DNA of 32,000 nt from Nitratidesulfovibrio vulgaris str. Hildenborough (GTDB lineage Bacteria; Desulfobacterota; Desulfovibrionia; Desulfovibrionales; Desulfovibrionaceae). Shown piece after piece: positions 1 through 16,955 of this stretch. Every line of letters starts with the position of its first letter. Position 1 is the first letter of the stretch. The notes under the pieces were generated by a model. It was not told where the DNA came from. It worked only from the letters and a program-made list of their open reading frames with translations, and did not search any database. The position numbers were made by a program, and so were the translations under genes. The DNA is taken from contig NC_002937.3 in NCBI RefSeq assembly GCF_000195755.1, forward strand, positions 3,120,001 through 3,152,000. The letters run 5' to 3'.

Positions 1-893
1 TCGGTCCCGAAGAACTCGCGGCGGAGAAGGCGCGTCTCGGCAGTGTGCTGCTGGCCTTTCCCAAGCATTCGTGCCACTGGACGCAGGCCATCTACGACAT
101 CGACGCCTTCTGCCACACGTTGCGCCGCACAGGGCGCGACTTCGACACCGTGCTGGTGTGCCTCTACTGGAAGGACGTATTGCAGGGCACGGCCCGCGCC
201 TTCATGGAACGCGGCTTCCGCTGCGTGACGGCAGGGCACATGTACAGCCCCTATTTCCTCAACAGGCTGCGGGCCATCATCGAGGTCGCCGACGCGGGCA
301 TCGCCAACTTCTTCTCCTCGGCCCTCGGGTACTGCGTCCACCTTGGCAGGCCGTTCCGCATCGCCATGCAGGACATGGAGTTCGTCACCCCCGACGCCGC
401 CATGCAGACGCATCGCGAGCACATCTTCAGCACTTCGTCCGGGTCGTGGGAGGCAGACATCGCGGAGGCCTTCAAGGGTGCCCCCATCACCATCACCCCG
501 CACCAGCGGCAACTGGTCGATACCATGTGGGGCAGCGCGCATGTCCGTGATGCGGCGACCCTGCGGCGCATCCTCGACCTGTGCGCGGCCATGCGCACCT
601 CGGGGGCATCCGTCGCCGCCAGCGACTGCATCGCCGCCGACATGGCCGCCCTGTGCATGGTCGAAGAACGCCCCGACGACGCGCTGCTGTTGCTCGAGGG
701 CGTACTGCACCGTGAGACGCCGCCGGCACGCGCCCTCGCCACACTGGCAGAGGCCCACCTCGCCCTCGGGGCCACGGAACGCGCCCTCGACGCGGCCCGA
801 CGCCTCGCCCGTAGCGCACCGGACGATGCCCGCCTCGCGGGGCTTCTGCAACGCATAGCCACCCGCACGGGTGCCTCGACGGTAGCACCATGA
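1..893 (+). CDS. hypothetical protein, 5'-truncated at window edge; C-terminal TPR-like helical repeats
   Basis: The frame starting at nt 3 is open from the window edge (GPEELAAEKARLGSVLLAFPKH...). The Met at 45 in the ORF track is therefore probably internal. The C-terminus (ALLLLEGVLHRE..ATLAEAHLALGATERALDAARRLARSAPDDA) looks TPR-like. The stop overlaps the next start (ATGA at 890-893). I recognise no catalytic motif. Confidence 0.6.
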   Translation, partial: GPEELAAEKARLGSVLLAFPKHSCHWTQAIYDIDAFCHTLRRTGRDFDTVLVCLYWKDVLQGTARAFMERGFRCVTAGHMYSPYFLNRLRAIIEVADAGIANFFSSALGYCVHLGRPFRIAMQDMEFVTPDAAMQTHREHIFSTSSGSWEADIAEAFKGAPITITPHQRQLVDTMWGSAHVRDAATLRRILDLCAAMRTSGASVAASDCIAADMAALCMVEERPDDALLLLEGVLHRETPPARALATLAEAHLALGATERALDAARRLARSAPDDARLAGLLQRIATRTGASTVAP

Positions 894-1966
894 CCGCGAC
901 ACCAGATTGCATGTCCGATACGCCTTCGCCGCTTGCCCCCGCAGGAGGGCGTGCCGCCATCATCGCCGAAGTGGGACTCAACCACGGTGGCGACGCCGAC
1001 CTCGCATGGGAGATGATCGAAAGCGCGTGGGAACACGGGGCCGACCTCGTCAAACTCCAGTCGTTCGCCCCCGGCGGGCTGCTGCACCCCTCGCTGCCCT
1101 ACGCCGCAAGCATGGAGGGCATGATGCTCTCGCTGCGGCAGCACGAGGCCCTCTTCGAACGGGCGCGGCGTCAGGGCATCGCCCTCATCACCACCCCCTT
1201 CGACGCGCCCACGCTCGACCTTTGCACCCGCTTCCGCATCGCCGCCGTCAAGGTGGCTTCCATGGACCTCGACAACACGGCGCACCTGCGTGCCGTGGCG
1301 CGCACGGGCCTGCCGGTCATCCTCTCGTGCGGCATGGGCGACCACGCCGATATCGGCAAGGCCCTCGCCACATTGCGCGAGTCCGGCGCGACCGACGTCA
1401 CGCTGCTGCACTGCATCTCCGACTATCCCGCAAGGCTCGAGGACATGCAGCTTGCCGAGATGCCGCGACTGGCGGCCCGCTTCGGCGTGCCCGTGGGCCT
1501 GTCCGACCACAGCCTCGGCCTCGAAGCCTCGCGCATGGCGCTGGCACTGGGGGCGAGGGTCATCGAACGCCACTTCACCACCGACCCGGCACTGATGGAA
1601 CGCATCCCCGATGCCGACCACGACATTTCGATCACCCCGGCACAGTTGCGTGAACTGCGCCTCGCCGCGGAACGCACCGCCCTCGCCCTCGGCGGGGCCG
1701 AACGCGTGCTCGCCCCGCAAGAGAGCGCAGGACGCACGGCATCGCGCCGGGGTCTCTACGCCCGCACCCGCCTCGCCGCAGGGCATATCCTGCGTGCCGA
1801 GGACGTGACGGCCCTGCGCCCCGTGGCGGCATTGCCCGCATCGGCGCTGGACGCCGTGCTGGGCAGGCCCTGCCCCTGCGACCTTGCCCCGCTGGCACCC
1901 ATTCCCGCGTCCATGCTGCCCAGCCACGAAGAAGCCGTAACAGACGACAAGGAAGGTGCCGCATGA
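890..1966 (+). CDS. neuB: NeuB-family nonulosonic (sialic/legionaminic/pseudaminic) acid synthase, 358 aa
   Basis: Has the N-terminal NeuB signature IIAEVGLNHGGDADLAWEMIESAWEHGADLVKLQSF. Also has HC(I)SDYP and SDHS motifs and a C-terminal SAF-like domain (LYARTRLAAGHILRAEDVTALRP). The ATG overlaps the upstream stop. The sugar substrate cannot be assigned from sequence alone. Confidence 0.85.
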   Translation: MTATPDCMSDTPSPLAPAGGRAAIIAEVGLNHGGDADLAWEMIESAWEHGADLVKLQSFAPGGLLHPSLPYAASMEGMMLSLRQHEALFERARRQGIALITTPFDAPTLDLCTRFRIAAVKVASMDLDNTAHLRAVARTGLPVILSCGMGDHADIGKALATLRESGATDVTLLHCISDYPARLEDMQLAEMPRLAARFGVPVGLSDHSLGLEASRMALALGARVIERHFTTDPALMERIPDADHDISITPAQLRELRLAAERTALALGGAERVLAPQESAGRTASRRGLYARTRLAAGHILRAEDVTALRPVAALPASALDAVLGRPCPCDLAPLAPIPASMLPSHEEAVTDDKEGAA

Positions 1967-2946
1967 CGCCGCAACCTCTTCCCCGCGTGGTCAACCTCGA
2001 ACTGACCAACCGTTGCGACATGGGCTGCGTCTTCTGCGACCATGCCGCCATGCGCGGCACCATGCGCATGGGCGACATGCCGCCGGAGAGACTCGACGCC
2101 ATCGTCGACCAGCTTCTCGACGCCCTCGCGGGCCGCAGATTGCCCGAGATAGGCATGGTGGGCCTCGGCGAACCCATGCTGAACCGCCACCTCGAGACGC
2201 ACCTTGCAAGCCTCGCCCGCATCGCCCCGCACTGCGACAGGGTGACCTTCAACTCCAACCTCGTGCATCTCGACGACGCCAAGGCCCGCCTCATGCTGGG
2301 TTCCGTCGCCACGGCATGCACCTTCTCGGTGAACGCCCCCGACCGCGAACACTACCGGCGCATCATGGGACGCGACCTCTTCGAACGGGTGCTCGCCAAC
2401 CTCACGGGCTTTCTCGAAGTGCGCCGGCGGCTGCGCCCCGACTTCCCGGTGGGTGTGCAAATCATGGAACAGCAGGGCGGCGAGGTGCAGAAACTCACAG
2501 CGCGCATCCCCGCCGACCTGTGCGAGGGCGTCTCGTTCTTCGTGCGCAGACTCTACAGCAAGCCCGCGCTGGTCGACCATGTGGCGCACAGCGACACCCC
2601 CGACGTGCGCCCCTTCGACGTGACCGAAGCCCGCTATCCCTGTTACGAGTTGTACAGCAAGGTCTACATCGACATCGACGGCAACCTGTATCCCTGCACC
2701 ATCGGCAACGACTGCCACAGGGCGGGCAGCGGGCTGCACATCGGCAATGTGGACGAGACCCCGGTCGGCGCGCTCTTCAACGGCGCAGCACTCGCCGCGG
2801 CACGCGCAAGGGCCGAGGCCGACGCGCTGCCCTTTCCCGAATGTGCGGCCTGCAACATATGGGCACTCACCCCCAACAACTTCGAACGCACGCACGAAGG
2901 CCGCTGGACCCTGCGCCCCGACCACAGGCGGGCCTTCGGCCTCTGA
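1963..2946 (+). CDS. radical SAM enzyme with C-terminal SPASM/twitch-like Cys cluster, 327 aa
   Basis: CxxxCxxC motif near the N-terminus (NRCDMGCVFCDH). C-terminal Cys-rich region (YPCYE..GNLYPCTIGNDC..PECAACNIW). SD AAGGAAGG lies upstream, and ATGA overlaps the neuB-like stop. Confidence 0.85.
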   Translation: MTPQPLPRVVNLELTNRCDMGCVFCDHAAMRGTMRMGDMPPERLDAIVDQLLDALAGRRLPEIGMVGLGEPMLNRHLETHLASLARIAPHCDRVTFNSNLVHLDDAKARLMLGSVATACTFSVNAPDREHYRRIMGRDLFERVLANLTGFLEVRRRLRPDFPVGVQIMEQQGGEVQKLTARIPADLCEGVSFFVRRLYSKPALVDHVAHSDTPDVRPFDVTEARYPCYELYSKVYIDIDGNLYPCTIGNDCHRAGSGLHIGNVDETPVGALFNGAALAAARARAEADALPFPECAACNIWALTPNNFERTHEGRWTLRPDHRRAFGL

Positions 2947-2955
2947 GGTGGCACC

Positions 2956-4134
2956 ATGAGCTTCACTCCCGCATCCGCATTCATCCCCTTCTCTCCGCCG
3001 CAGATAGGCCCGGAAGAGGAGCACGAACTTCTCGAGGCCCTGCGCAGCGGCTGGATAACCACCGGCCCCCGCGTGCGCGCCTTCGAAGCCGCCACAGCAG
3101 CCGTGGCGGGCGCGACCCACGGCGTGGCCACGTTCTCGTGCACCGACGCCATGCTTGTGGCTTTGGCCGCCTTCGGGGTCGGCCCCGGCGACGAGGTGAT
3201 AACCACCCCGTACACCTTCATCTCCACGGCGCAGGTCATCCTGCATCGCGGGGCGCGCCCCGTGTTCGTGGATGTGGACCCGCGCACCTTCAACATCGAC
3301 CCCGCCCGCATCGAGGCCGCCATCACCCCGCGCACGAGGGGCATCATGCCCGTGCACTTCGCGGGGCAGGTGTGCGACATGGACGCCATCCTCGCCATCG
3401 CCCGCAGGCACGGTCTCTTCGTCATCGAGGATGCCGCCCACGCCTTCGGCGCCACCCACAACGGGCACCCCGTGGGCACACTGGGCGACGTGGCGTGCTT
3501 CAGCTTCTACGCCACCAAGAACATCACCACGGCCGAAGGCGGCATGGCCGTCACCAGCGATGCCGACCTCGCACAGCGTATGCGGGTGCTCTCCATGTAC
3601 GGCATCAGCGACGCACGCGAGATATGGCAGAAGCGCTACACCCGCGCGGGCAACATCCACTATGACGTGCAGGAGCTCGGCTACAAGTGCAACATGACCG
3701 ACCTGTGTGCCGCGCTGGGGCTGGTGCAGCTGCGCCGCATGGACGCCATCGCCGCCGCCCGCCGCAGCTACGCCGCCATCTACGACGAGGCGTTCGCCGA
3801 CCTGCCCGTGACGACGCCCCATGTCGCCCCCTACGCGGGGCACGCATGGCACCTCTACCCGCTGCGGCTCGACCTTGACCGCATCAGCCTCTCACGCGAC
3901 GAGGTCATCCTGCGCCTCAAGGAATGCAACGTGGGAACGAGCGTCATGTTCACGCCGTTGCACCTCTTCTCGTACTTCCAGCGCGAGATGGGGTTCAACG
4001 AAGGCGACTTCCCCGTGGCCGAAGACCTCTTCTCGCGCGTGGTATGTCTGCCCATGTCGCCCGCCCTCGGTGAAGAGCGCATCCGCAAGGTGGCCGAGAC
4101 CGTGGCGCACGTCGTCACCGAAGGCGCGAGGTAG
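2956..4134 (+). CDS. DegT/DnrJ/EryC1/StrS-family PLP-dependent sugar aminotransferase, 392 aa
   Basis: Family-typical motifs: LEALRSGWITTGPRV, DEVITTPYTFISTA, IMPVHFAGQ.CDMD, FVIEDAAHAFG, and the PLP-lysine region FSFYATKNITTAEGGM. SD GAGGTGG lies upstream. Confidence 0.9.
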   Translation: MSFTPASAFIPFSPPQIGPEEEHELLEALRSGWITTGPRVRAFEAATAAVAGATHGVATFSCTDAMLVALAAFGVGPGDEVITTPYTFISTAQVILHRGARPVFVDVDPRTFNIDPARIEAAITPRTRGIMPVHFAGQVCDMDAILAIARRHGLFVIEDAAHAFGATHNGHPVGTLGDVACFSFYATKNITTAEGGMAVTSDADLAQRMRVLSMYGISDAREIWQKRYTRAGNIHYDVQELGYKCNMTDLCAALGLVQLRRMDAIAAARRSYAAIYDEAFADLPVTTPHVAPYAGHAWHLYPLRLDLDRISLSRDEVILRLKECNVGTSVMFTPLHLFSYFQREMGFNEGDFPVAEDLFSRVVCLPMSPALGEERIRKVAETVAHVVTEGAR

Positions 4135-4138
4135 CACC

Positions 4139-4933
4139 GTGCGCGCCATGTTGCTTCAGCCCTTCTACTTTCCGTGGGCGGGCATGTTCGACATGATGTC
4201 GCGCTGCGACCTCTTCGTGTTCTACGATGACGCGCAATTCGTCCGGGGCAGCTGGCAGAGTCGCAACCGCATCCTCTCGCCGCAGGGGGTGAAGTGGCTT
4301 TCCGTGGCCATCGACAGGTCGGGACATGTGGGCACCGCCATCCGCGACATGCGCGTCAACGACCGTGAAGGCTGGCGGACGAAGCACCTCAACCAGCTGC
4401 GCGAGGCATACCGCAAGACCCCCCACTTCGACCTCGTGTACCCGGAGGTGGAGACGCTGCTGGCGCAGGACTCGGACAGGCTTGTGGACTTCTCCACCGG
4501 CAGCGTGCTGCTGTGTGCGCGGCTGCTTGGCATCGCAACGCCCGTAGCCTGCGCTTCGACCTTCGATGTCGGGCCGTGCCGGGGCGAAGAGAAGGTCATC
4601 GCCCTCATGCGCGCGGCAGGGGCAGACTGCTATTACGACGGTGCCAGCGGCGTGGAACTCTACGCACCCGAACGGTTCGCCGCCGCGGGGCTGGCATTGC
4701 GCTTCCATGCCTATGAGCACCCCGTCTACGAACAGGGTGACAGCCTGCGTGAGCATGCGGCCCTTGCGAAGGCTGGAAGCGCTGCCGCGCCGGACGTACA
4801 GGGCACGCCGGACACGACGGGCACAGGCGGCGCACGTCCCTTCACGCCCTACCTTTCCGTACTCGACCTGCTCTTCCGCACCGGGCCGCAAGCGCTGGAC
4901 ATCCTGCGTTCCGGCAACCGCGAGGTCGCCTGA
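4139..4933 (+). CDS. WbqC-family protein (polysaccharide-cluster protein of unknown biochemistry), about 264 aa
   Basis: N-terminus (V/M)RAMLLQPFYFPWAGMFDMMSRCDLFVFYDDAQF..SWQSRNRI is the typical WbqC start. The GTG at 4139 has GAGG 7 nt upstream. The alternative ATG at 4148 has no SD. The ORF-track extension back to 3821 overlaps the aminotransferase and is rejected. Confidence 0.8.
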   Translation: MRAMLLQPFYFPWAGMFDMMSRCDLFVFYDDAQFVRGSWQSRNRILSPQGVKWLSVAIDRSGHVGTAIRDMRVNDREGWRTKHLNQLREAYRKTPHFDLVYPEVETLLAQDSDRLVDFSTGSVLLCARLLGIATPVACASTFDVGPCRGEEKVIALMRAAGADCYYDGASGVELYAPERFAAAGLALRFHAYEHPVYEQGDSLREHAALAKAGSAAAPDVQGTPDTTGTGGARPFTPYLSVLDLLFRTGPQALDILRSGNREVA

Positions 4934-4961
4934 CCACACAGCATCGACAGGAAGTCGAACC

Positions 4962-6833
4962 ATGCCCTATCTCGTCGCCGTCCTCGTCTCCGCCCTCTAC
5001 TATCTCGCCAAACGCAGCGCGTGGGGCGAGAGCATGTACCCGCATGAGGGGTACCACGCCTATTTCCGTTTCCCCTTCGGTCGGCACCCTCTCCGCTACT
5101 ATGCGCTTGATGGCGGCAGTGCGCCCAACGCCCTTGCCAACCTCTTCTTCTCCACCGCCTACGCACACGGGAGGGACAGGGGCAACCGCGCCTACGACAT
5201 CACGCTAGTGTTGACAGGCGTCTGCCTCTTCGGCATCACGCTGGCCCTCACGGGCGACGCCCGCATCGCCGCGGCGACCCTCACCGTCTACCACCTGCTG
5301 AACCTCGCGCCCCTCGCCACCCTGTCGTTCTGCAACGCCGAGACCGTCGTCAACTTCATGACAGCGCTGGGCACGCTGGTGACACTGTGCGGGATGCAGG
5401 CAGACATGCCGGCCATTTCCCTCGTCGGGGCGTTCATCGCCACGCTGGGCTTTCAGGCCAAGGCATGCACCTTCGACCACCTGTGGCCCCTCGCCTGCGC
5501 ACTCGTCCTGCCCGTGCCCGCGCAACACGCATGGATGGCACTGGCGGGCACGGCGGCAGGACATGCCCTGTACGGCATCCTCGTCATCGTGGCATCGGGC
5601 CGGGGGGTCTTCCACCGCCTGCGCGCCCTGCTGGGGCTGCATCGCCGCAACGCGGCCCAGCGCAACGACGGGTTCGCCTATCGCACCATGCTACGCGACT
5701 TCGCCTTCTACCTGTTCGAGCATCTGCGGGTGGTGCTTCCCTTCACCCCCTTCCTGCCGCTGTACTTCATGGCGCACGGGCCGGACGCACGCCTGCCGTG
5801 GCTGATGCTCGCCCTTTTCACCCTGTCGGCACTCCACATGCTGGTGCGGGGCGTCTTCGCCATCCAGTACGGCGTACTCACGCACTTTCCGCTGGCCTTC
5901 GCCACCGCCGCCTGCCTTGTCCCGCATGGCGGCGACATGCTGTCCCACCCCTTCGCCACCGCCGCCATCCTCCTCACCGGGCTATGGTTTTCCGTCCATG
6001 GATACCGCGACAACGCCCAGAATCACCTCGGCGAATGGCGTACTGCCACGTTCTTCGTGCGACGCTTCATCATCGACTACCTGAAACCGCGCCTCGAACC
6101 GGGCGACCACATCTTCCAGGACGGGCATTTCACCGCCCTGTATGTGGAGACGGGGGCGCCCGGCCCCATCCCTGAACTCGTGTGGGCCGTCCATGCCCGC
6201 AACAACGCCCTGTGGGATGAAGGCCACCGCAGGGCCTTCAACGCCTTCTTCCGCGAGACACGCCCCCGCTGGCTGGTGCTCTTCGCCGACCAGCTGAACC
6301 TCGACGCGCTGGAGAGGGCCTACGGCCTGCGCTACCGCCTCGAGTCCGCACGATTCACCCGCATCTACAGGCTTGCCGAGACCGTGCCCCCCGAGGCGGC
6401 CGAGGACTTCGACCCGCGCACCCTCTACTCCGGCCCCGGCGCACGTCATGCGTCGGACATCGACGCCCTGGAGAAGAGGGCCGCGTTCCTGACCGCACGG
6501 GCGCAGCAACGCCTCGCGGAAGGCCGGACGGAGGTCGCCGCGGAGATGCTGCGCGACGTATGGGAGAGTGCGGGGCACCTGCCGGGGACGGGGGTTGCCT
6601 ACGCCCTCGCACTGGAAGCGGCAGGCGATGCCGGTGGCGCGGTGCAGGTGCTGCGCGACGACCTGCTGCTGCACCCCGAAGGAGGGGCGGCCCCCCACCT
6701 TGAAAGGCTGGTTCCCGCAGTCGTGCCGCAAGGGTCGATAGCCCGCCTGCACCGGGCACTGCTTCCCAGTATCCTCGCGGCGGACTGCTATTTGCATAAA
6801 AAAGGGAAGGCCGCCGTCAACGCCACCCGCTGA
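4962..6833 (+). CDS. polytopic inner-membrane protein (about 10-11 TM segments) with roughly 270-aa C-terminal soluble, TPR-like domain; possible GT-C-type glycosyltransferase or polymerase
   Basis: ATG at 4962 is preceded by AGGAAG. Hydrophobic segments run from MPYLVAVLVSALYYL through AILLTGLWFSV. The hydrophilic C-terminal part ends in helical repeats (AEMLRDVWESAG..YALALEAAGDAGGAVQVL). The upstream part of ORF 4566.. is out-of-context Arg/Pro-rich sequence. Function is inferred from topology and neighbours only. Confidence 0.7.
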   Translation: MPYLVAVLVSALYYLAKRSAWGESMYPHEGYHAYFRFPFGRHPLRYYALDGGSAPNALANLFFSTAYAHGRDRGNRAYDITLVLTGVCLFGITLALTGDARIAAATLTVYHLLNLAPLATLSFCNAETVVNFMTALGTLVTLCGMQADMPAISLVGAFIATLGFQAKACTFDHLWPLACALVLPVPAQHAWMALAGTAAGHALYGILVIVASGRGVFHRLRALLGLHRRNAAQRNDGFAYRTMLRDFAFYLFEHLRVVLPFTPFLPLYFMAHGPDARLPWLMLALFTLSALHMLVRGVFAIQYGVLTHFPLAFATAACLVPHGGDMLSHPFATAAILLTGLWFSVHGYRDNAQNHLGEWRTATFFVRRFIIDYLKPRLEPGDHIFQDGHFTALYVETGAPGPIPELVWAVHARNNALWDEGHRRAFNAFFRETRPRWLVLFADQLNLDALERAYGLRYRLESARFTRIYRLAETVPPEAAEDFDPRTLYSGPGARHASDIDALEKRAAFLTARAQQRLAEGRTEVAAEMLRDVWESAGHLPGTGVAYALALEAAGDAGGAVQVLRDDLLLHPEGGAAPHLERLVPAVVPQGSIARLHRALLPSILAADCYLHKKGKAAVNATR

Positions 6834-6885
6834 CGGTACGGGAAGGCACGTCAGGAACGACACCAAGCACGCAAGGAAGCACCGT

Positions 6886-8592
6886 ATGCCGCCCACCGAC
6901 GAACACCATACCCCCCTCTCGCTGGCAGAGGACATCGCACGAGAACAGCAGAACCCCACCCTGCGGGCTGCCGTCCTGCATCTGCGCCTCGGTGAGACGG
7001 AACAGGCGCGCAGGCTGCTTGAAGAGGCCACAGCCAAATCGCCGCGCAACGGGGCCATACCGCTGGTCATGGCCCTGCACCTTGCCGCCTCGGGCGACGG
7101 CGAAGGTGCCGACACATGGTTCCGCAAGGCCCTCGCCGCCGAACCAGACCAGCCCGAGGCCCTGCGCGCCTACGGTCTCTTCCTGCTGGGGCAGGACGCC
7201 ACGGTACGTGGCCTGCGCCTGCTGCGCATGGCGGCTGAACTTGCGCCGCAATCGCTGGCCATCGGCCTCGAATGCGCCGGTGCGGCCATCATGTGCGGCG
7301 AGTACCACACCGCCCGCGACATGAGTCGCCGCATTCTCTCGGCATCTCCCGGCCACCCGCTGGCGTTGCGCAACCTCGGTGTCGCCCTCGCCGGACTCGG
7401 CGAGAAGGCAGAGGCCACGGATATACGCCGGCGTCTGCACGAAGCGGGGCACGAGGCCGAGGCCCAAGACCTCGACACCGTGCTGGCGCGCATGGAACAG
7501 GACATCCCGCCCGGTTCGCCACTGCCGGGCGACGAGGCCCTGCACCTTGCCTTCGCCTCGCGCAGCTTCGACATCTCGCCCTTCAGGATGCTGCCGTGCG
7601 AGCATGGACGCGACGACGGCCCGGTGGCCCTTTCCGTCATCGTCCCCATCAAGAACGAGGTGGAGAACCTGCCCATCCTGCACCGCGAGGTAGCGCAGGC
7701 ACTGCACGACCTCAAGCAGCCGTGGGAACTCATCCTCGTGGATGACGGCAGCACCGACGGCAGCATCGAAGTGATGGAGGGCATCGCCGCCGCCGACCCG
7801 CGCGTGACCATCATCGTCTTCCGCCGCAACTACGGACAGACGGCGGCCCTCAGCGCGGGCTTCAAGCTGGCGCGTGGCGAAGTGGTGGTGACGCTGGACG
7901 GCGACCTGCAGAACGACCCCGCCGACATCCCCATGCTGCTGGAGGTCATGGCCGAGGGCAACGACATGGTGTGCGGCTGGCGCCGCGACCGCAAGGACAA
8001 GATGGTCACCCGGCGCATCCCCTCCATGGCCGCCAACTGGATCATCAACAAGCTCATCGCGGGCACGGGTGTGCAGTTGCACGACTTCGGCTGTTCGCTC
8101 AAGGCGTACAAGCTCAACATCGTCAAGAACATCAACCTGTACGGAGAGATGCACCGCTTCATCCCGGTGTTCGCGGCATGGCTTGGCGTCCGCATCGCCG
8201 AGGTGGAGGTCAACCACCGCCCCCGCACCCACGGCGTCACCAAGTACAATCTCTCGCGGGTATGGCGCGTCATCTTCGACCTGCTGCCGCTGCGCTTCTT
8301 CTCGGACTACATGACGCGGCCCATCCATTTCTTCGGCAAGATAGCCAACTACATGGTGGCCCTCGGGCTGGGCGGCATCGCCCTGACCACCCTGCTGGCG
8401 AAACTCTTCGGCATGCCGGGTGAGACGCTCACCTTCTGCCTCATGGTGGAGGTGCTGCTCATCGGCGGTCTGCTCATCCTGTGTCAGGGACTCATCGGCG
8501 AGGTGCTCATCCGCACCTACTTCGAGGCGCAGGGCAAGCGGCAGTTCGTCATCGAACGCATCATACGGAACGGCGACACATGTGCGGAATAG
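6886..8592 (+). CDS. TPR-repeat domain fused to GT2 polyprenyl-phosphate glycosyltransferase (GtrB/ArnC/DPM1-like), 568 aa
   Basis: The N-terminal ~230 aa carry TPR-like repeats (e.g. ADTWFRKALAAEPDQPEALRAYGLFLL). The GT2 core has LSVIVPIKNE, ILVDDGSTDGS, FRRNYGQTAAL, TLDGDLQNDP, DFGCSLKAY, GEMHRFIP and H.PR.HG.TKY motifs. Two C-terminal TM helices are typical of GtrB/ArnC. SD AAGGAAG lies 6 nt upstream. Confidence 0.88.
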   Translation: MPPTDEHHTPLSLAEDIAREQQNPTLRAAVLHLRLGETEQARRLLEEATAKSPRNGAIPLVMALHLAASGDGEGADTWFRKALAAEPDQPEALRAYGLFLLGQDATVRGLRLLRMAAELAPQSLAIGLECAGAAIMCGEYHTARDMSRRILSASPGHPLALRNLGVALAGLGEKAEATDIRRRLHEAGHEAEAQDLDTVLARMEQDIPPGSPLPGDEALHLAFASRSFDISPFRMLPCEHGRDDGPVALSVIVPIKNEVENLPILHREVAQALHDLKQPWELILVDDGSTDGSIEVMEGIAAADPRVTIIVFRRNYGQTAALSAGFKLARGEVVVTLDGDLQNDPADIPMLLEVMAEGNDMVCGWRRDRKDKMVTRRIPSMAANWIINKLIAGTGVQLHDFGCSLKAYKLNIVKNINLYGEMHRFIPVFAAWLGVRIAEVEVNHRPRTHGVTKYNLSRVWRVIFDLLPLRFFSDYMTRPIHFFGKIANYMVALGLGGIALTTLLAKLFGMPGETLTFCLMVEVLLIGGLLILCQGLIGEVLIRTYFEAQGKRQFVIERIIRNGDTCAE

Positions 8593-10673
8593 CAGGCATC
8601 GTCTCTCCCGGCGCACCCGTGGCCTCCGCCACGCTCGCCGCCATGACGGAGAGTCTCGCCCATCGCGGGCCCGACGCCTGCGGCCTCTTCATCCGGCCTT
8701 CCGGGGCGGGTAGCCCCCATGTGGGACTCGGGCACCGCCGCCTGTCCATCCTCGACCTCTCCGACGCGGGCGCACAGCCCATGCAGAGTGAGGACGGGGC
8801 GTTCACGCTGGTCTTCAACGGCGAGATATACAACTACCCCGACCTGCGACGCGACCTTGAAGCCGCCGGGCACATCTTCCGTTCGACGTCCGACACCGAA
8901 GCCATCCTGCGCGGCTACATGGCGTGGGGCGAAGGTGTCGTCGCACGTCTCAAGGGCATGTTCGCCTTCGCCCTGTGGGACGAACGAAAGCGCAGCCTGC
9001 TGCTGGCCCGCGACCGCTTCGGCAAGAAGCCCCTGCACTACGCCGTCACCCGGCAGGGCACGCTGCTCTTCGCCTCCGAACCCAAGGCACTTCTCGCGCA
9101 CCCCGAATTCCGGCCCGAACCCGACGCCGCATCGCTTCTCCATTTCCTGCGCTACGACTATGTGCCCGCACCGCGTTCCATCTACGCCGGGGCCGCCAAG
9201 TTGCCGCCTTCGCATCTCATGGTGTGGCGCGACGGACGTCTTGAAGTGCGGCGTTACGCCAGCCTCGCCTTCTCCGGCGCGACCGGGGACCGCGGGGTTC
9301 CGCTGCGCGAGGCCGAAGCCGCCGTGGACGCGCTTCTCGACGCTGCCGTACAAAGACGCCTCGCCAGCGACGTGCCCCTCGGCGTCTTCCTCTCCGGCGG
9401 TCTCGACTCGTCAACGGTGCTTGCCTACATGACGCGGCACATCCCCGCCCACGACATCCGCACCTTCGCCATCGGCTTCGACGAAGCAAGCTACGACGAA
9501 TCGGCCCATGCCGAGGCCATGGCGCGCCATGCCGGGTCGCACCACACCATGATGCGCCTGCCCGCCGCGCGGATGCTCGACCTGCTGGACATGGTGTGGA
9601 CCACGCAGGACGAACCCATGGCCGACGCCTCCATCATCCCCACCCTGCTGCTGTGCCGTTTCGCGCGCGAACACATCACCGTGGCGCTGGGGGGCGACGG
9701 CGGCGACGAACTCTTCGCGGGCTACGACCCCGTGCTTGCCGACCTGCCCGCCCGCTGCCTCGACTGGCTGCCCCCGGCGGCCCTGCGGCTGCTACAGGGC
9801 ATCGCGCTGCGGCTGCCCACGGGGGACGCCAACATGAGCCTCGGCTTCAAGGTTCAGCGTTTCCTCTCCGGTCTCGGGGCACGCGAGGTGGCTGCACGCC
9901 ACCAGACATGGCTGGGGGCGTTCGACGACGAGGGGGCACGTGCCATGCTGCACCCCGACCTGCGCGCCGCCACACGCGACGTCTCGCCCCTCGACGCGCT
10001 GGACATGCTGCGCGAGGAGTGCCGCGACGCCTCACGGTTCGACGCCATGCTCCACTTCTACCAGCGCTTCTACATGTGCGGTTCCATTCTCACCAAGGTG
10101 GACAGCGCGAGCATGGCGGTCTCGCTGGAGGTGCGCTCGCCCTTCCTCGACCAGGACCTTGCGGACTACGTCAACAGGCTTCCGCGTGAGCACAAGTTGC
10201 GCGGTCTCACCCGCAAGGTGCTGCTGCGCAGGCTCATGCGTTCGCGCATGCCCGATGCGCTACTCAAACGTCCGAAGAAGGGCTTCGGCCTGCCGCTGGC
10301 CCGGTGGTTCCGCCATGAACTGCGGCCCCTCGTGACCGCCATGCTCGACCCCGGTCGCGTGGCGCAGGGCGGCCTCCTCGACCCCGTGACCGTGGAACGC
10401 ATGGTACGCGACCACCTTTCGGGACGCCGCGACCACCGCAAGGAGATCTGGTCGGCCCTGTGCGTCGAGGCATGGCGCGAACGCTACCTGCATCACAGCC
10501 GCGCCACGGCATCCGACACGATAGAATTCGGCACGACGCCCCACGGAGACGGGCACCTCATCACAGCGCAAGCCGTCCCTGCACGGTCTTCGGCTGCCAT
10601 CAACGACTCCACGAACGACAGCCCGTCATGGGCCGCGTCCCCTTCGAGGCACAGATGCAACGACTCAATCTAG
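8580..10673 (+). CDS. asnB: asparagine synthase (glutamine-hydrolysing) family amidotransferase, 697 aa, with low-complexity C-terminal tail
   Basis: Canonical Ntn start MCGIAG. GATase-II motifs HRGPD and LSI.DLS..G.QP. Synthetase PP-loop FLSGGLDSS. Overlaps the GT2 stop by 13 nt. Probably a pathway-specific amidotransferase rather than housekeeping AsnB. Confidence 0.9.
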   Translation: MCGIAGIVSPGAPVASATLAAMTESLAHRGPDACGLFIRPSGAGSPHVGLGHRRLSILDLSDAGAQPMQSEDGAFTLVFNGEIYNYPDLRRDLEAAGHIFRSTSDTEAILRGYMAWGEGVVARLKGMFAFALWDERKRSLLLARDRFGKKPLHYAVTRQGTLLFASEPKALLAHPEFRPEPDAASLLHFLRYDYVPAPRSIYAGAAKLPPSHLMVWRDGRLEVRRYASLAFSGATGDRGVPLREAEAAVDALLDAAVQRRLASDVPLGVFLSGGLDSSTVLAYMTRHIPAHDIRTFAIGFDEASYDESAHAEAMARHAGSHHTMMRLPAARMLDLLDMVWTTQDEPMADASIIPTLLLCRFAREHITVALGGDGGDELFAGYDPVLADLPARCLDWLPPAALRLLQGIALRLPTGDANMSLGFKVQRFLSGLGAREVAARHQTWLGAFDDEGARAMLHPDLRAATRDVSPLDALDMLREECRDASRFDAMLHFYQRFYMCGSILTKVDSASMAVSLEVRSPFLDQDLADYVNRLPREHKLRGLTRKVLLRRLMRSRMPDALLKRPKKGFGLPLARWFRHELRPLVTAMLDPGRVAQGGLLDPVTVERMVRDHLSGRRDHRKEIWSALCVEAWRERYLHHSRATASDTIEFGTTPHGDGHLITAQAVPARSSAAINDSTNDSPSWAASPSRHRCNDSI

Positions 10674-11221
10674 GCTGCGGCCAGTACCCCAAAGCGGGGT
10701 TCCTCAACGTGGACGTGGACCCGCTTGCCAAGGCGGACGTGTTCCACGACCTGTCGTCCTTCCCCTATCCGTTCGAGGATGCGCGGTTCGACCTCGTGGA
10801 GATGGACCATGTGCTCGAACACCTGCCCTCGCCGCGCGACGCCATGCGCGAGATATGGCGCATCCTGAAACCGGGCGGCACGCTACGGTTACGGGTACCC
10901 CACTTCTCGCGCGGGTTCAGCCACTACGACCACAAATGCGGCTTCGACGTGACCTTTCCTCTCTATTTCGACCCCACGTTCCCCGGCGGCTACACGGGCA
11001 TCCCCTTCGAGCATGTGCAGACGCGCCTTGTGTGGTTCGCGCAGCCTTGGCTCAAGCGGCAGGTGCTCGGCAACTTCGCCTTCAATGTGGGCAAGATGCT
11101 GGGGATGGTCTTCGACGCGCTGGGCAACATCGCGCCGCTGGCGACGAGCAGGCTTTTCTGCTTCTGGGTGGGCGGCTACGAGGAGATAACCTTCGAGTTG
11201 CGCAGGCCGACGAACACCTGA
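10655..11221 (+). CDS. class I SAM-dependent methyltransferase (Methyltransf_11-like), about 188 aa
   Basis: MQRLNLGCG(QYPKAGFLNVD) glycine-rich SAM motif at the N-terminus, and later LKPGG. ATG 10655 has GAGG 5 nt upstream. The alternative ATG at 10628 has no SD. Both overlap the AsnB tail. Confidence 0.8.
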   Translation: MQRLNLGCGQYPKAGFLNVDVDPLAKADVFHDLSSFPYPFEDARFDLVEMDHVLEHLPSPRDAMREIWRILKPGGTLRLRVPHFSRGFSHYDHKCGFDVTFPLYFDPTFPGGYTGIPFEHVQTRLVWFAQPWLKRQVLGNFAFNVGKMLGMVFDALGNIAPLATSRLFCFWVGGYEEITFELRRPTNT

Positions 11222-11268: not shown

Positions 11269-11317
11269 AATACGACACGCCATGACGGTTTCTCGTCCGT
11301 CATGGCGTGTCGTATTT
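11269..11317. terminator. bidirectional rho-independent-type terminator between convergent operons
   Basis: Perfect 20-bp stem (AATACGACACGCCATGACGG / CCGTCATGGCGTGTCGTATT) with 8-nt loop TTTCTCGT. All 20 pairs were checked by hand. ATTT/AAAT-type ends flank both strands. It lies in the 114-bp gap between stops at 11221 (+) and 11336 (-). Confidence 0.8.
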
Positions 11318-11335
11318 GCGTGCCAGGTCTCTATT

Positions 11336-12781
11336 TCATCCTACCTGAGTTCGCGCGGCCTTGACCTGTGCAATGGCGATACGCAACATGAGCAAAGGAG
11401 ACATGCGAACAGGCACAATTCGCTTGAACAGCAGATTCTTGGTCACGGTATAGATGCATTTAAAAAGAATGTTATTACTGGGCAGCTTCGCCAGACAACG
11501 CAGGAACACTCCACGCAAGACCGGAAAGCGGATGACCAGAGGCCCCAGCAGAACGATGTTCTTCTGGATGTTCTTCTCTTCATCCGTGTAGGTCGTCAGC
11601 TTCGAAAGTTCGCCGGTCGACGTGGGTATGTCGCCATCGCCGCCACATCTTTCGGGCAGGATGCCGTCCTTTTCACACATGTCGTGAATCCGTGTTCCGG
11701 GGAAGGGTGCCATGATTGTGAAGTGACCCAATGTAGGCCGGCACCTGATATTCAAGTCCAGTGTGGCGATGTCGTCAGCGAGCGTGGCACGGGGCATGGC
11801 GAGCATGCTATTGGTGTAGATGGCGATGCCAGCCTCGTTGAACAGGTCGAACGATTCGATGATCTTCTCGTTTGAAACCCTACGGTTGAGTACATCACGG
11901 CGCACTGTCTCGGCCCCTGCCTCTATGGACATGCACACCGAACGACAGCCAGCTTCGCGCAACAGGCGGACCATGTCACGCGTGACCACGTCAGCCCGCA
12001 GCAGGCAATAGAACGGCAGCCCGATCAACCTCGGATACTTTTCAGCAAATTCTTCAAGCCACGAATCAACGCGATACGTAAACGAATCATCAGAAATCTT
12101 GATGTATGATGTCGGATAACGTGCGATGACGTCACGCATCTCGGCAATGAGGTGGTCAACTGAGCGTCTTCTTACGACATGCCCAAGACCTGCATACATG
12201 GCATTGTAGGCATGGTTGAAACAATAGGTGCACTTGAAATGGCAACCTCGTGACGCGGCGAAGGTCTTCAGTGGAAAATCTCTTACGATATGGTTCTTAG
12301 CGTAGACTATATCGCGATCTATAAAAGGCAGGTCGTCAAGGTCTGAGACAAGCGGCCTCAGGGTGACAGGCGTTGTGACCGTTCCGACATTGCGTATCCC
12401 CTCGACATGCCCCTCCCTTCCATACTGTTCAAGAGCTTCTACAAGTGCCTCATCGCCTTCGCCAACGCATATAGCGTTTACAGGGAGCACCATAAGACAC
12501 GAAGGATCGAATGTTGGATGCGGTCCACCTACGATGATGAAAAGGTCAGGGAAGACCATTCGAACCTTATTCAGGACTTGATGCATCATCACTGCATCCG
12601 AACTCATGAGGCTTACGCCAAGCATATCGGGCTGAAAAGACCTGATGGCTTCAATATAGTCTTCAGTCAGAAGTGTCAGGCCAACGATATGCCCTCTCTG
12701 CTTCAAGCTTGCGGAAAGCTGCATAAGCCCGAGAGGATCACCCTCAAGGCTTAATCGCGGATGCAGGAACATGAAGCGCAT
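11336..12781 (-). CDS. cobalamin(B12)-binding-domain radical SAM enzyme (class B), 481 aa; compositionally foreign (low GC)
   Basis: Start MRFMFLHPRL.. is preceded by GGGAGA. The N-terminal B12-binding-like Rossmann region (LGLMQLSASLKQRGH.V..) is followed by RGCHFKCTYCFNH (CxxxCxxC). The ORF-track N-terminal extension (to 13129) overlaps the upstream methyltransferase and is Arg/Gly/Cys junk. Hand counts of four 60-nt lines give 38-47% GC, against 73% in one flanking line counted. Confidence 0.85.
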   Translation of the reverse strand: MRFMFLHPRLSLEGDPLGLMQLSASLKQRGHIVGLTLLTEDYIEAIRSFQPDMLGVSLMSSDAVMMHQVLNKVRMVFPDLFIIVGGPHPTFDPSCLMVLPVNAICVGEGDEALVEALEQYGREGHVEGIRNVGTVTTPVTLRPLVSDLDDLPFIDRDIVYAKNHIVRDFPLKTFAASRGCHFKCTYCFNHAYNAMYAGLGHVVRRRSVDHLIAEMRDVIARYPTSYIKISDDSFTYRVDSWLEEFAEKYPRLIGLPFYCLLRADVVTRDMVRLLREAGCRSVCMSIEAGAETVRRDVLNRRVSNEKIIESFDLFNEAGIAIYTNSMLAMPRATLADDIATLDLNIRCRPTLGHFTIMAPFPGTRIHDMCEKDGILPERCGGDGDIPTSTGELSKLTTYTDEEKNIQKNIVLLGPLVIRFPVLRGVFLRCLAKLPSNNILFKCIYTVTKNLLFKRIVPVRMSPLLMLRIAIAQVKAARTQVG

Positions 12782-12812
12782 TGCCGTCTCCCTGGATTGA
12801 CCTGAGTCTAGC

Positions 12813-13844
12813 CTAACTCGTCCGCCGGTAGACCGACACGAACGACCCCGACTTGCGAAGCCATGCCTGCACGATGTTGAGGGGCAGAAACGCCAGCAGC
12901 AGCCACTTGTAGTACCATGCCCGACCGCGGGTGAGCGGTCGCCGCGTCGACGGTGTTGCCTGAAGGCGGTTCTGTACCGAGAGTGCCCAGTGGTCGGTGT
13001 TGGGCTGGAAGCTACGCGAGGCGAGGCGCAGCCCGCACAGCGCAGCAAGCCTGTCCAGCGACACCGGCCCGAAGAGGTAGGTATGCCGCGGCACATGCAG
13101 CCCGCCCCACCAGCGCCCGGCGACGGCATAGTCCCACGAGTCGGTGTTGGGGGTCTCCACCACGATGTGCCCGCCGGGACGCAGCAGCCGCACGGCCTGT
13201 TCCAGTTCGGCTACGGGGTCGGTGACATGCTCGATGAGGTTGTTCATGATGATGACGTCGTAGGGTTCGGCGTCCTTCATGTCGGCAAGCGTTCCGGTCA
13301 CGACGCGGAAGCCCCGGTCGCGGGCACGTTGCGCGATGTCGTCGATGAACTCCACCCCTTCCGGCACCACATCGGGCCGCGCCTTCACCAGTGCGTCGAA
13401 ATAGGCGGCATCCGCACACCCCACGTCGAGGAGTCTTCCCCCTCGCGGCAACAGACGCCCGTAGGCCCGTACCCGCAGACCGTACACCAGCCTGTAGAGA
13501 AGACCCACCAGCCCCTTCGCCCCGGTATGGAAGCCGTGATAGTGCGGCGGATAGGCGGCTTTGAGCTGTTCGATACCGGGTTGCGGCGTCAGCACCAAAA
13601 GGCCGCACTCGGCGCAATGTCCGAAGCCGAAATCGCCCTCCGCGCCGTATTCGTAGTCGGGCACATGCGCGAATGCCGGTGCAAGCCGCACCGCGCACAG
13701 CGGACAATGCCCGTGCTGCACGCCGCCTGCGTTCTCTTCAACCCTTTCCGTGGGCCTTTCCGTGGGCCTTTCCGCAGGCCCTTCCGTAGGCCTTCCGGCG
13801 GCATCTGCACTCCCGTGCATGCGGTCGTTCGTCGCGTCTTTCAT
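12813..13844 (-). CDS. class I SAM-dependent methyltransferase with N-terminal Cys4 zinc-ribbon and (R/G)P(T/A)E tetrapeptide repeats, 343 aa
   Basis: Zn-ribbon CPLC...(24 aa)...CAECG. SAM motif I is LLDVGCADAAYF, with later motifs IIMNNLIEH and LRPGG. The start ATG overlaps the stop of the upstream gene (ATGA on the - strand at 13841-13844). Confidence 0.85.
   Translation of the reverse strand: MKDATNDRMHGSADAAGRPTEGPAERPTERPTERVEENAGGVQHGHCPLCAVRLAPAFAHVPDYEYGAEGDFGFGHCAECGLLVLTPQPGIEQLKAAYPPHYHGFHTGAKGLVGLLYRLVYGLRVRAYGRLLPRGGRLLDVGCADAAYFDALVKARPDVVPEGVEFIDDIAQRARDRGFRVVTGTLADMKDAEPYDVIIMNNLIEHVTDPVAELEQAVRLLRPGGHIVVETPNTDSWDYAVAGRWWGGLHVPRHTYLFGPVSLDRLAALCGLRLASRSFQPNTDHWALSVQNRLQATPSTRRPLTRGRAWYYKWLLLAFLPLNIVQAWLRKSGSFVSVYRRTS
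13743..13790 (-). repeat. in-frame tandem repeat, 4 x 12 bp (CCTTTCCGTGGG-like), inside the methyltransferase N-terminus
   Basis: Units are cctttccgtggg, cctttccgtggg, cctttccgcagg and cccttccgtagg, with a degenerate fifth unit. They encode RPTEGPAERPTERPTER on the - strand. Confidence 0.9.
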
Positions 13845-16548: not shown

Positions 16549-16917
16549 CTACACTTCGAGGGCAAGCCTGTCGCGTTCCTTGTCGTCACGCTCGAACTGC
16601 ACCGCCGTGCCGTAGCACGAGAAGTACTTGCTGCCGTCGGGGTGGAAGGCCACGTTCTCGCTGTAGCCGATGATGGCCTGTGCGCCCTTGTTCACCGCGC
16701 GCGCCGCCATGCCGAAGAAGGTCTCGTCCGAATCGTAGCCGCGGCAGCACACCAGCCCGAGTACGCGCGAAATGGCACGCCCTTCGACCCGGTCGGTGGT
16801 CACCACGGGAAAACGACCGTTGAGAAAGAGTTCGCGAACCCTCTCCATGTTCTCGGTGCGCGGGGTGTTCTCGGCCTTGGCCTTCTTCTTGTCGTTACCG
16901 CCCAGCAGAAACAGCAT
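16549..16917 (-). CDS. small protein, 122 aa; by-eye resemblance to YbjQ/UPF0145 domain with shortened middle and a Lys-rich N-terminal extension
   Basis: Strong SD AGGAGGA lies about 6 nt upstream of the ATG, and a sigma-54 promoter lies about 40 nt upstream. VVTTDRVEGRAISRVLGLV... and ...GAQAIIGYSENV...CYGTAVQFE resemble the ends of YbjQ-family proteins. The confidence value refers to the CDS call; the functional assignment is weak (about 0.35). Confidence 0.7.
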   Translation of the reverse strand: MLFLLGGNDKKKAKAENTPRTENMERVRELFLNGRFPVVTTDRVEGRAISRVLGLVCCRGYDSDETFFGMAARAVNKGAQAIIGYSENVAFHPDGSKYFSCYGTAVQFERDDKERDRLALEV

Positions 16918-16955
16918 GTGTGCATCCTCCTGACTTCAGTGTCTGGAGGTTCGGA

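Follow-up and report, generated by a model that had tools for sequence, protein, structure and literature searches.

We analysed a 32,000-nucleotide stretch of the Desulfovibrio vulgaris Hildenborough genome (C1:3120001-3152000, hereafter the window), whose positions 1-11221 are filled by nine plus-strand genes, g1 to g9. Among them, a gene for a NeuB-family synthase (g2) is followed by genes for a radical S-adenosylmethionine (SAM) enzyme (g3), a DegT aminotransferase (g4) and a WbqC protein (g5). Our favored reading, to which we give slightly better than an even chance, is that these genes take part in an unconventional pathway to an ulosonic, probably nonulosonic, acid that NeuB makes and that is activated with CMP, and in the decoration and transfer of this acid. 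Going by gene content, the operon is a new variant of nonulosonic-acid-type glycan biosynthesis, with a mechanism that is well motivated. The genes g1-g9 are the 3' portion of a longer array of 12 genes on one strand (15.7 kb), predicted to be a single operon, that runs from about -4474 to 11221 (coordinates are window positions, negative values lying upstream of the window).

The original prediction had placed at 1-11221 a nine-gene cluster with NeuB, radical SAM, DegT, WbqC, AsnB and methyltransferase genes. All of these were confirmed, in domains as well as in coordinates, and the gene overlaps it gave at 890 (ATGA), 1963 (ATGA) and 8580 (13 nt) read as it had stated; the remaining gaps within g1-g9 measure 9-52 nt. 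Its nine genes stood, but its start at position 1 did not, since three more genes (u12, u13 and u14), with 10-nt gaps, extend the array upstream, and its title left out g1, g6 and g7.

The NeuB-family synthase and the canonical pathway enzymes

The g2 protein matched the Pfam family NeuB (PF03102) with 227.2 bits against a gathering score of 22.1, and SAF with 41.9 against 21. It fell below the N-acetylneuraminate/legionaminate synthase equivalog TIGR03569 (238.7 against a cut-off of 399.65) and below the PseI equivalog TIGR03586 (227.4 against 340.25), and was about equidistant from the solved PseI and NeuB structures. Residues E27, H207, E226, H228 and R310 of g2, invariant in its subfamily, aligned with E25, H215, E234, H236 and R314 of N. 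meningitidis NeuB, which we take to be its metal or catalytic residues. In a collection of 5.8 billion proteins, the relatives of g2 went from 94% and 84% identity, in near strains, straight to about 60 clusters at 42-50%.

The phylogenetic check suggested with the original prediction was run. In a tree of 92 sequences, obtained by a quick search with Shimodaira-Hasegawa-like approximate likelihood ratio (SH-aLRT) support only and anchored by PGAP-named pseI and neuB genes from plasmids, not by characterized enzymes, g2 and 33 relatives, a subfamily group picked by similarity to g2, formed one clade (SH-aLRT 98). This clade lay within the NeuB family, apart from the pseI clade (support 100) and from the neuB-type group, where the second NeuB paralogue of the genome was placed. 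Because the catalytic and metal residues are kept, the equivalog scores are low and the clade is separate, we regard g2 as a predicted working NeuB-family synthase that is, by the tests used, neither PseI nor NeuB/LegI.

It had also been supposed that enzymes of the NeuA type, and early enzymes of the NeuC or PseB type, might lie upstream. A NeuA-type candidate was indeed found just upstream of g1, in the form of u14, a CTP_transf_3-methyltransferase fusion whose cytidylyltransferase part matched PF02348 with 69.4 bits and stayed below the KdsB and PseF equivalog cut-offs. The early enzymes were found neither there nor elsewhere. The genome, 99.95% complete and made of two replicons of 3,570,858 and 202,301 bp, had no match to PF02350, the hydrolysing UDP/GDP-GlcNAc 2-epimerase family of NeuC and LegG, while a control search was positive in 11 of 14 reference genomes. 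Its best match to the PseB 4,6-dehydratase/5-epimerase model TIGR03589 reached 48.6 bits against a cut-off of 407.75. The array contained no GNAT or LbH acetyltransferase and no PseG. Outside the array but within the surrounding glycosylation island, a short-chain dehydrogenase/reductase (SDR) of the epimerase/dehydratase type is encoded upstream.

The second NeuB locus (C1:394354-401951) encodes a NeuB that scored 309.7 bits on TIGR03569 (below the cut-off), a LIC12162-family transferase, a PseG-like fusion also below its equivalog cut-off, an aminotransferase, an iron alcohol dehydrogenase and an acetyltransferase. Nearby lie genes for a KdsB-like cytidylyltransferase and an HpaI-type aldolase. 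As far as gene content tells, a canonical Neu, Leg or Pse route is not possible from either NeuB locus of this genome.

We surveyed gene neighborhoods by running tblastn with every island protein as query on 80 loci of species-representative genomes and on 79 metagenome loci that the g3 alignment had brought up; phylogenetically, the loci are not independent of one another, and patterns from the query families served to retrieve them. The survey bears on a rival explanation, namely a canonical pseudaminic (Pse) or legionaminic (Leg) acid pathway with acetamidino and N-methyl decorations, whose early enzymes would be supplied from elsewhere. An AsnB homologue stood beside NeuB in 48 of the 73 loci of other NeuB clades (less than 500 nt away in 35 of the 73, mostly Alphaproteobacteria metagenome-assembled genomes (MAGs), L016-L088), and an AsnB has been suggested, though not proven, to form the acetamidino group of Pse (Pse5Am) in Tannerella forsythia (PMC6120980). 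The rival can also call on the membership of g2 in the NeuB family, on PseC as the closest model of g4 (359.5 bits) and on the PseG-like and aminotransferase genes of the second locus. We nonetheless judge it distinctly unlikely: no PF02350 match and no PseB over cut-off exist in the genome, the NeuB, PseC and PseG-like scores all stay under their equivalog cut-offs, the array has no GNAT or LbH acetyltransferase, and the conserved partners of the synthase are radical SAM enzymes and WbqC. The Pse/Leg-type pathway put forward by the original prediction is likewise disfavored by the synthase itself, which is under both equivalog cut-offs and outside both named clades.

Radical SAM-aminotransferase pairs, WbqC and the conserved module

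In the g3 family (57 clusters), C18, C22 and C25 (CX3CX2C) are invariant, as are exactly four more cysteines, C227, C245, C294 and C297, and there is no second cysteine set. Because these further invariant cysteines number exactly four, a single auxiliary Fe-S cluster (the twitch arrangement) is predicted. The cysteine spacing of u12, and of a third radical SAM protein encoded divergently from it (u11), is the same. The AlphaFold model of g3 (predicted local distance difference test, pLDDT, 90.8) was compared with known structures by VIA-align, which placed BtrN (4m7t) first with a Z of 23.8 and a root-mean-square deviation of 2.6 Å over 243 of the 246 BtrN residues; the next entry had a Z of 19.4. 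It was this re-ranking that set BtrN apart, as Foldseek returned a flat list of SPASM/twitch enzymes in which BtrN did not stand out. A sequence search of the PDB with g3 gave nothing useful.

BtrN converts the secondary alcohol of 2-deoxy-scyllo-inosamine to a ketone, which a DegT-family aminotransferase then aminates. With the BtrN/BtrS pair of the butirosin/2-deoxystreptamine pathway, g3 shares the CX3CX2C motif, one four-cysteine auxiliary cluster and an adjoining DegT aminotransferase. It differs in being about 15% identical to BtrN and 80 residues longer, in belonging to a NeuB/CMP-sugar operon instead of an aminocyclitol antibiotic cluster, and in being known here from sequence and model. 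The aminotransferase g4 scored 359.5 on the PseC model against a cut-off of 423.5 and 348 on the ArnB model against 631, and it lay directly downstream of a g3 orthologue in 23 of 25 testable loci. Upstream, u12 preceded a u13 orthologue (at least 54% identity) in 8 of 8 loci. Residues 248-440 of u12 are 30.7% identical to the cytidylyltransferase domain of u14 (E 6e-17), and its best NCBIfam match was to an uncharacterized 'spiro-SPASM' subfamily, at 75 bits (below cut-off). In many metagenome loci, u12 orthologues of 39-51% identity adjoin u13-type aminotransferases.

We infer from the model that g3 is a BtrN-like twitch radical SAM enzyme and a putative sugar hydroxyl dehydrogenase. Because the near-obligate gene pairs fit the BtrN system, g3-g4 and u12-u13 would, by analogy, each aminate a sugar by oxidation and subsequent transamination.

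It is unlikely, in our view, that the radical SAM enzymes are instead epimerases, deoxygenases or dehydratases of the DesII or AprD4 kind, or C-modifying enzymes, with the aminotransferases using keto sugars from an ordinary SDR dehydratase. Such an arrangement would agree with the presence of DesII, BlsE and the epimerase EpeE among the structural matches (Z 17-19), with the SDR gene of the island, and with the more distant u13-like aminotransferases (41-45% identity), whose genes had an SDR gene after them in all 5 of the 5 loci. Yet BtrN stands 4.4 Z units above every other entry, with 243 of its 246 residues covered, g3 shares its single auxiliary cluster pattern, and each of the two radical SAM genes is tied to an aminotransferase gene. 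The loci with an SDR and a u13-like gene lack u12, which fits the replacement of one ketone-maker by the other.

The other unusual component, g5, matched PF08889 with 208.5 bits against a gathering score of 21.3 and is the sole WbqC copy in the genome. The family is large, with 10,133 representative clusters at E <= 0.001; among eight long members there were six fusions to GNAT, one to radical SAM/SPASM and one double WbqC. An exhaustive VIA search with the g5 model (pLDDT 91.5) matched BshC (4wbd) with a Z of 13.9 over 236 residues, class I LysRS with 11.1, GluRS with about 8, and ArgRS, CysRS and MshC with about 6.7-7.6. Foldseek on the same model was weak (BshC, E 0.018). In bacillithiol and mycothiol synthesis, respectively, BshC and MshC ligate cysteine to an amino-sugar amine. 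The g5 model shares the class I aminoacyl-tRNA synthetase-like catalytic fold with them and the gene follows that of an aminotransferase that would supply the sugar amine, while the protein, at about 230 aa, has neither the coiled coil nor the extra domains of BshC and no detectable sequence similarity to it.

The WbqC gene lies directly after the aminotransferase gene here and in a Parcubacteria locus, and WbqC was present in 6 of the 7 genome loci of the NeuB clade of g2 as opposed to 1 of the 73 loci of other NeuB clades. Because of its BshC/class I synthetase-like fold and its position directly after the aminotransferase, our modeling suggests that WbqC is a putative ATP-dependent ligase joining an amino acid or another carboxylate to the new sugar amine. 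We hypothesize that the GNAT domains of the fusion proteins would cap the ligated residue.

Throughout the survey, a block of the order (u12)-u13-u14-WbqC-NeuB-g3-g4 recurred, often with MbnB-like, MT23 and radical SAM genes. It was found in MAGs of Parcubacteria, Planctomycetaceae (Planctomycetota), Nitrospinaceae (Nitrospinota) and Nitrospirae (Nitrospirota) and in metagenomes, at 40-63% identity. Thirty-four loci had a g3 orthologue; NeuB was directly upstream of it in 11 of 27 testable cases, and g6, g7 and g8 were present in 0, 1 and 1 of the 34. The AsnB protein, the methyltransferase g9, the glycosyltransferase g7 and the membrane protein g6 are local additions outside the conserved module, which almost all related loci lack. 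Amine and hydroxyl decorations are represented in related loci by formyltransferase, carbamoyltransferase, PIG-L and MBOAT genes. The original prediction had grouped synthase, aminotransferase, AsnB and methyltransferase into one toolkit. This holds as a NeuB-centered glycan operon, but AsnB and the methyltransferase do not belong to the conserved module; the two parts it had singled out as unusual, radical SAM and WbqC, both do.

A variant module was seen in MAGs of Planctomycetes and Proteobacteria (L009:2225-7180, L010:10994-16099), where WbqC-NeuB is followed by genes for an uncharacterized 340-aa protein, a carbamoyltransferase, a radical SAM/SPASM protein and a formyltransferase, with no aminotransferase directly after NeuB. 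On metagenome contig Ga0302253_1000850 (L098), the u10-to-g5 stretch was found at 97-100% protein identity, indicating the same or a very close strain in that sample.

Closer to home, no g3 or g6 orthologue turned up in a further 150 Desulfovibrionaceae genomes from 72 genera, and the NeuB-family matches present in 114 of these 150 did not exceed 43% identity. For this reason, sequence comparison makes the array a lineage-specific acquisition.

Transfer, decoration and the proposed route

Besides the conserved module, the array encodes candidate transferases. The ESM Atlas neighbors of g1 were TagF/KpsS/polysialyltransferase-like (0.85-0.89), with a TM of 0.53 to Glyphos_transf. TagF, KpsS and polysialyltransferases use CMP- or CDP-activated donors. 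As a lead only, g1 is a candidate CMP-sugar transferase. The Atlas neighbors of g6 were PMT_2/PMT proteins with tetratricopeptide repeats (TPR), at 0.94-0.98; these are language-model neighbors only, g6 having no Pfam match and no sequence match in the PDB. It is a candidate GT-C (PMT_2/GT39-like) periplasmic glycosyltransferase. The next protein, g7, matched Glycos_transf_2 (111 bits) and TPR families and has hydrophobic segments at residues 486-543 (C-terminal membrane helices). Its scores of 183.8 on the ArnC model (cut-off 529) and 141.8 on the PgfS model (cut-off 500) make it a candidate polyprenyl-phosphate sugar synthase, a family 2 glycosyltransferase (GT2) of the ArnC/GtrB/PgfS type. 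As in the Arn, Gtr and Pgf systems, this GT2 with C-terminal membrane helices is encoded beside a polytopic protein, g6, with GT-C-like neighbors; here, however, both partners carry TPR, and related NeuB/radical SAM loci do not have the pair. The island holds four TPR-bearing transferases, and TPR-fused transferases suggest a protein acceptor.

The likeness to Arn opens another explanation, in which g4, g7 and g6 would deliver a polyprenyl-phosphate-linked amino sugar to lipid A or lipopolysaccharide in the periplasm, the NeuB set being a separate pathway that shares the operon. ArnB is the second-best model of g4, ArnC is the best model of g7, the neighbors of g6 are GT-C-like and formyltransferases occur in related loci. 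We give this proposal little chance. Neither score comes near its cut-off (631 for ArnB, 529 for ArnC), the array showed no gene of the ArnA or ArnD type, and g4 accompanies g3 and NeuB in loci devoid of g6 and g7. The TPR domains of the latter two are also more in keeping with a protein acceptor than with lipid A.

The amidotransferase g8 scored 461.5 on the AsnB equivalog TIGR01536, above the cut-off of 267.1, and 541 on TIGR03108, whose cut-off is 816.9; its MCGIAG start gives the catalytic Cys2. It matched nine NCBIfam families at E <= 1e-5, all of the AsnB, GATase or lactam-synthetase type and none of the PseA/WbuX type. By sequence, it is a bona fide glutamine-hydrolysing AsnB-type amidotransferase, full length, and the label 'PseA-like' given to it earlier does not apply. 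We infer that it would amidate a carboxylate or form an amidine on the glycan. Past the conserved synthetase end, g8 carries a low-complexity tail of about 60 aa rich in Ser, Thr, Ala and Pro (10460-10673), which overlaps the start of g9 by 19 or 46 nt. The latter matched Methyltransf_11 with 44.7 bits and has an LNLGCG motif at its N-terminus.

We also asked whether the cluster could mature a ribosomally synthesized and post-translationally modified peptide (RiPP), with SPASM enzymes, an MNIO/MbnB-like protein and an AsnB-like lactam synthetase acting on a small peptide. There are SPASM domain matches, an upstream protein matched MbnB/TglH/ChrH (48.9 bits), g8 matched a lasso-cyclase model (214 bits) and downstream B12-radical SAM genes matched ApyD, all these scores being far under the cut-offs. 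No precursor peptide gene was found, the conserved neighbors are NeuB, cytidylyltransferase, DegT and WbqC, and g3 (327 aa) resembles BtrN in its single auxiliary cluster and lacks a RiPP recognition domain. With no precursor peptide and with sugar enzymes as neighbors, we rejected the RiPP explanation as highly improbable.

Under the favored ulosonic-acid reading, g2 would make the ulosonic acid by phosphoenolpyruvate (PEP) condensation and u14 would activate it with CMP. Like BtrN, each radical SAM enzyme (g3 and u12) would oxidize a hydroxyl group of the sugar, with no need for O2 or NAD, and its partner aminotransferase (g4 and u13) would turn the resulting ketone into an amine, the oxidation and amination possibly taking place on the CMP-linked sugar. 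WbqC would acylate the new amine with an amino acid or another carboxylate, AsnB would amidate a carboxylate or form an amidine, and the methyltransferases would methylate. The g1 protein, with its TagF/KpsS-like domain and TPR, would transfer the CMP-sugar, and g7 together with g6 would provide a local polyprenyl-phosphate-dependent periplasmic glycosylation step.

A more specific version is a late-stage route independent of O2 and NAD. The ulosonic acid formed by the new-clade NeuB would be plain or mono-amino; it would be CMP-activated, worked on by two twitch dehydrogenases (one fused to a CMP-sugar-binding domain) and their aminotransferases, and aminoacylated by WbqC. This would yield a hitherto undescribed nonulosonic acid, or an ulosonic acid of another length, that is N-aminoacylated, amidated and methylated and sits on a surface protein. 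We advance this version tentatively and find it somewhat doubtful as a whole.

Several points weigh against the favored reading. DesII, CteB, SuiB and anSME all align with the g3 model at a Z of about 19, and twitch/SPASM enzymes also include epimerases, dehydratases and peptide maturases, so that a shared fold is no proof of function. The WbqC profile found no PDB chain at E <= 10, and the likeness to BshC is one of fold only. The roles of g1 and g6 come from language-model neighbors only, with no Pfam or PDB sequence support. Moreover, the SDR epimerase/dehydratase encoded elsewhere in the island (LegB model, 72.9 bits) means that a dehydratase step may occur at the hexose level.

Compared with the PseBCHGIF, LegBCHGIF and NeuCBA pathways, the array shares a NeuB-family PEP condensation, a DegT aminotransferase, CMP activation, and methyl and amido decorations within one surface-glycan locus, but it has two radical SAM-aminotransferase pairs and WbqC in place of the N-acetyltransferase and PseG. 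The logic of oxidizing and then transaminating an ulosonic acid is that of KdnB/KdnA of Shewanella, which turn Kdo into 8-amino-Kdo (Kdo8N). There, the oxidant is an iron alcohol dehydrogenase, whereas the one proposed here is a radical SAM enzyme, and two pairs are present.

A NeuB cluster of Ca. Kuenenia stuttgartiensis with a deacetylase and a formyltransferase has been tied by mass spectrometry to CMP-nonulosonic acids bearing one free and one formylated amine, and methylation (SugarBase preprint, 10.64898/2026.04.20.719630). The preprint describes legB, legC and legG homologues, with radical SAM and WbqC unmentioned (10.64898/2026.04.20.719630). PIG-L and formyltransferase genes also occur in relatives of the present module; this genome has no legG. 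No characterized orthologous O-antigen or capsule locus was found in plasmids, genomes or the literature. Our literature search returned no relevant study of this locus (presumably DVU3008-3013), of nonulosonic acids in D. vulgaris or of WbqC, and a full-text search returned no paper containing both 'radical SAM' and 'nonulosonic'.

Layout, surroundings and significance of the array

The GC content of the region is about 65-70%, which produces many spurious open reading frames (ORFs). Genes were therefore chosen by third-position GC, domain onsets, Shine-Dalgarno sequences and start codons. For g5, g6, g8 and g9, the ORF list alone gives over-long frames, and the starts were reset by domain onsets, Shine-Dalgarno sequences and third-position GC. 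The g1 gene starts with an ATG preceded by a GGAGGGG Shine-Dalgarno sequence, 3 nt past the stop of u14. The resulting features are listed in Table 1.

Table 1. Genes of the array and the inverted repeat that follows it, in window positions
Feature	Position	Strand	Description
u12	about -4474..-2750 (L005:15526-17250)	+	Cytidylyltransferase-like domain fused to radical SAM/SPASM
u13	about -2739..-1705	+	Second DegT aminotransferase
u14	about -1694..-333	+	CTP_transf_3 cytidylyltransferase fused to methyltransferase
g1	-330..893	+	407 aa; N-terminal domain of about 300 aa of no known family, C-terminal TPR (TPR_19)
g2	890-1966	+	NeuB and SAF; PF03102, 227 bits
g3	1963-2946	+	Pfam Radical_SAM and SPASM; 327 aa
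g4	2956-4134	+	DegT; PF01041, 443 bits
g5	4148-4933	+	WbqC; PF08889, 208 bits
g6	4962-6833	+	623 aa; hydrophobic N-terminal half, helical C-terminal part; no Pfam match
g7	6886-8592	+	N-terminal TPR and GT2
g8	8580-10673	+	AsnB type; GATase_7 and Asn_synthase; N-terminus MCGIAG
g9	10655 (alternative start 10628) to 11221	+	Small class I SAM methyltransferase
Hairpin	11269-11317	.	Long perfect inverted repeat read in sequence, between convergent operons

The hairpin likely marks the end of the array. It scored weakly in a simple terminator scan, having no clear T run. The promoter/terminator scan marked a terminator-like site at 11303-11325, but its 4 sites did not exceed the 5.2 expected from shuffled sequence.

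The array sits in a lineage-specific glycosylation island of about 38 kb, extending from about -21 kb to +17 kb. Divergent from u12 are the radical SAM/SPASM gene u11, a methyltransferase gene and an MbnB/MNIO-like gene; farther upstream come the SDR epimerase/dehydratase gene, more methyltransferase genes and five glycosyltransferase genes, one of them TPR-fused. Downstream, a convergent operon comprises two B12-radical SAM genes, a methyltransferase gene and another radical SAM/SPASM gene. At its 3' end, a B12-binding radical SAM gene (11336-13129, minus strand) has a GC content of 52-57%, as against 63-70% around it, and at its head is a small YbjQ-like protein gene (16549-16935, minus strand; PF01906, 27.7 bits). 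The island is flanked upstream by leuA/leuC/leuB, pspC, a sigma-54 activator gene and moeA, and downstream by genes for an HDOD protein, a kinase, NtrC, por and lactate permease. No flagellar genes stand beside it, and no Wzx/Wzy- or ABC-type export genes were seen within it. With leu, psp and moeA genes on one side and signaling and lactate-utilization genes on the other, a flagellar linkage by position was rejected.

Nonulosonic acids influence flagella and S-layers as well as susceptibility to phages and recognition by the immune system, and they are known to be made by three textbook routes. The module described here swaps the usual dehydratase, acetyltransferase and hydrolase steps for radical SAM-aminotransferase pairs and WbqC, and its spread over uncultured anaerobic lineages makes this chemistry a real gap. 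D. vulgaris Hildenborough is a model sulfate reducer that lends itself to genetics, so that gene knock-outs, the profiling of CMP-sugars and anaerobic enzymology are all within reach. A function for WbqC, if found, would annotate a very large family present in O-antigen and glycan loci. Were the proposed role true, this WbqC would be the first to be characterized in a family, numbering over 10,000 clusters, of aminoacyl-tRNA synthetase-like ligases that put amino acids on sugar amines.

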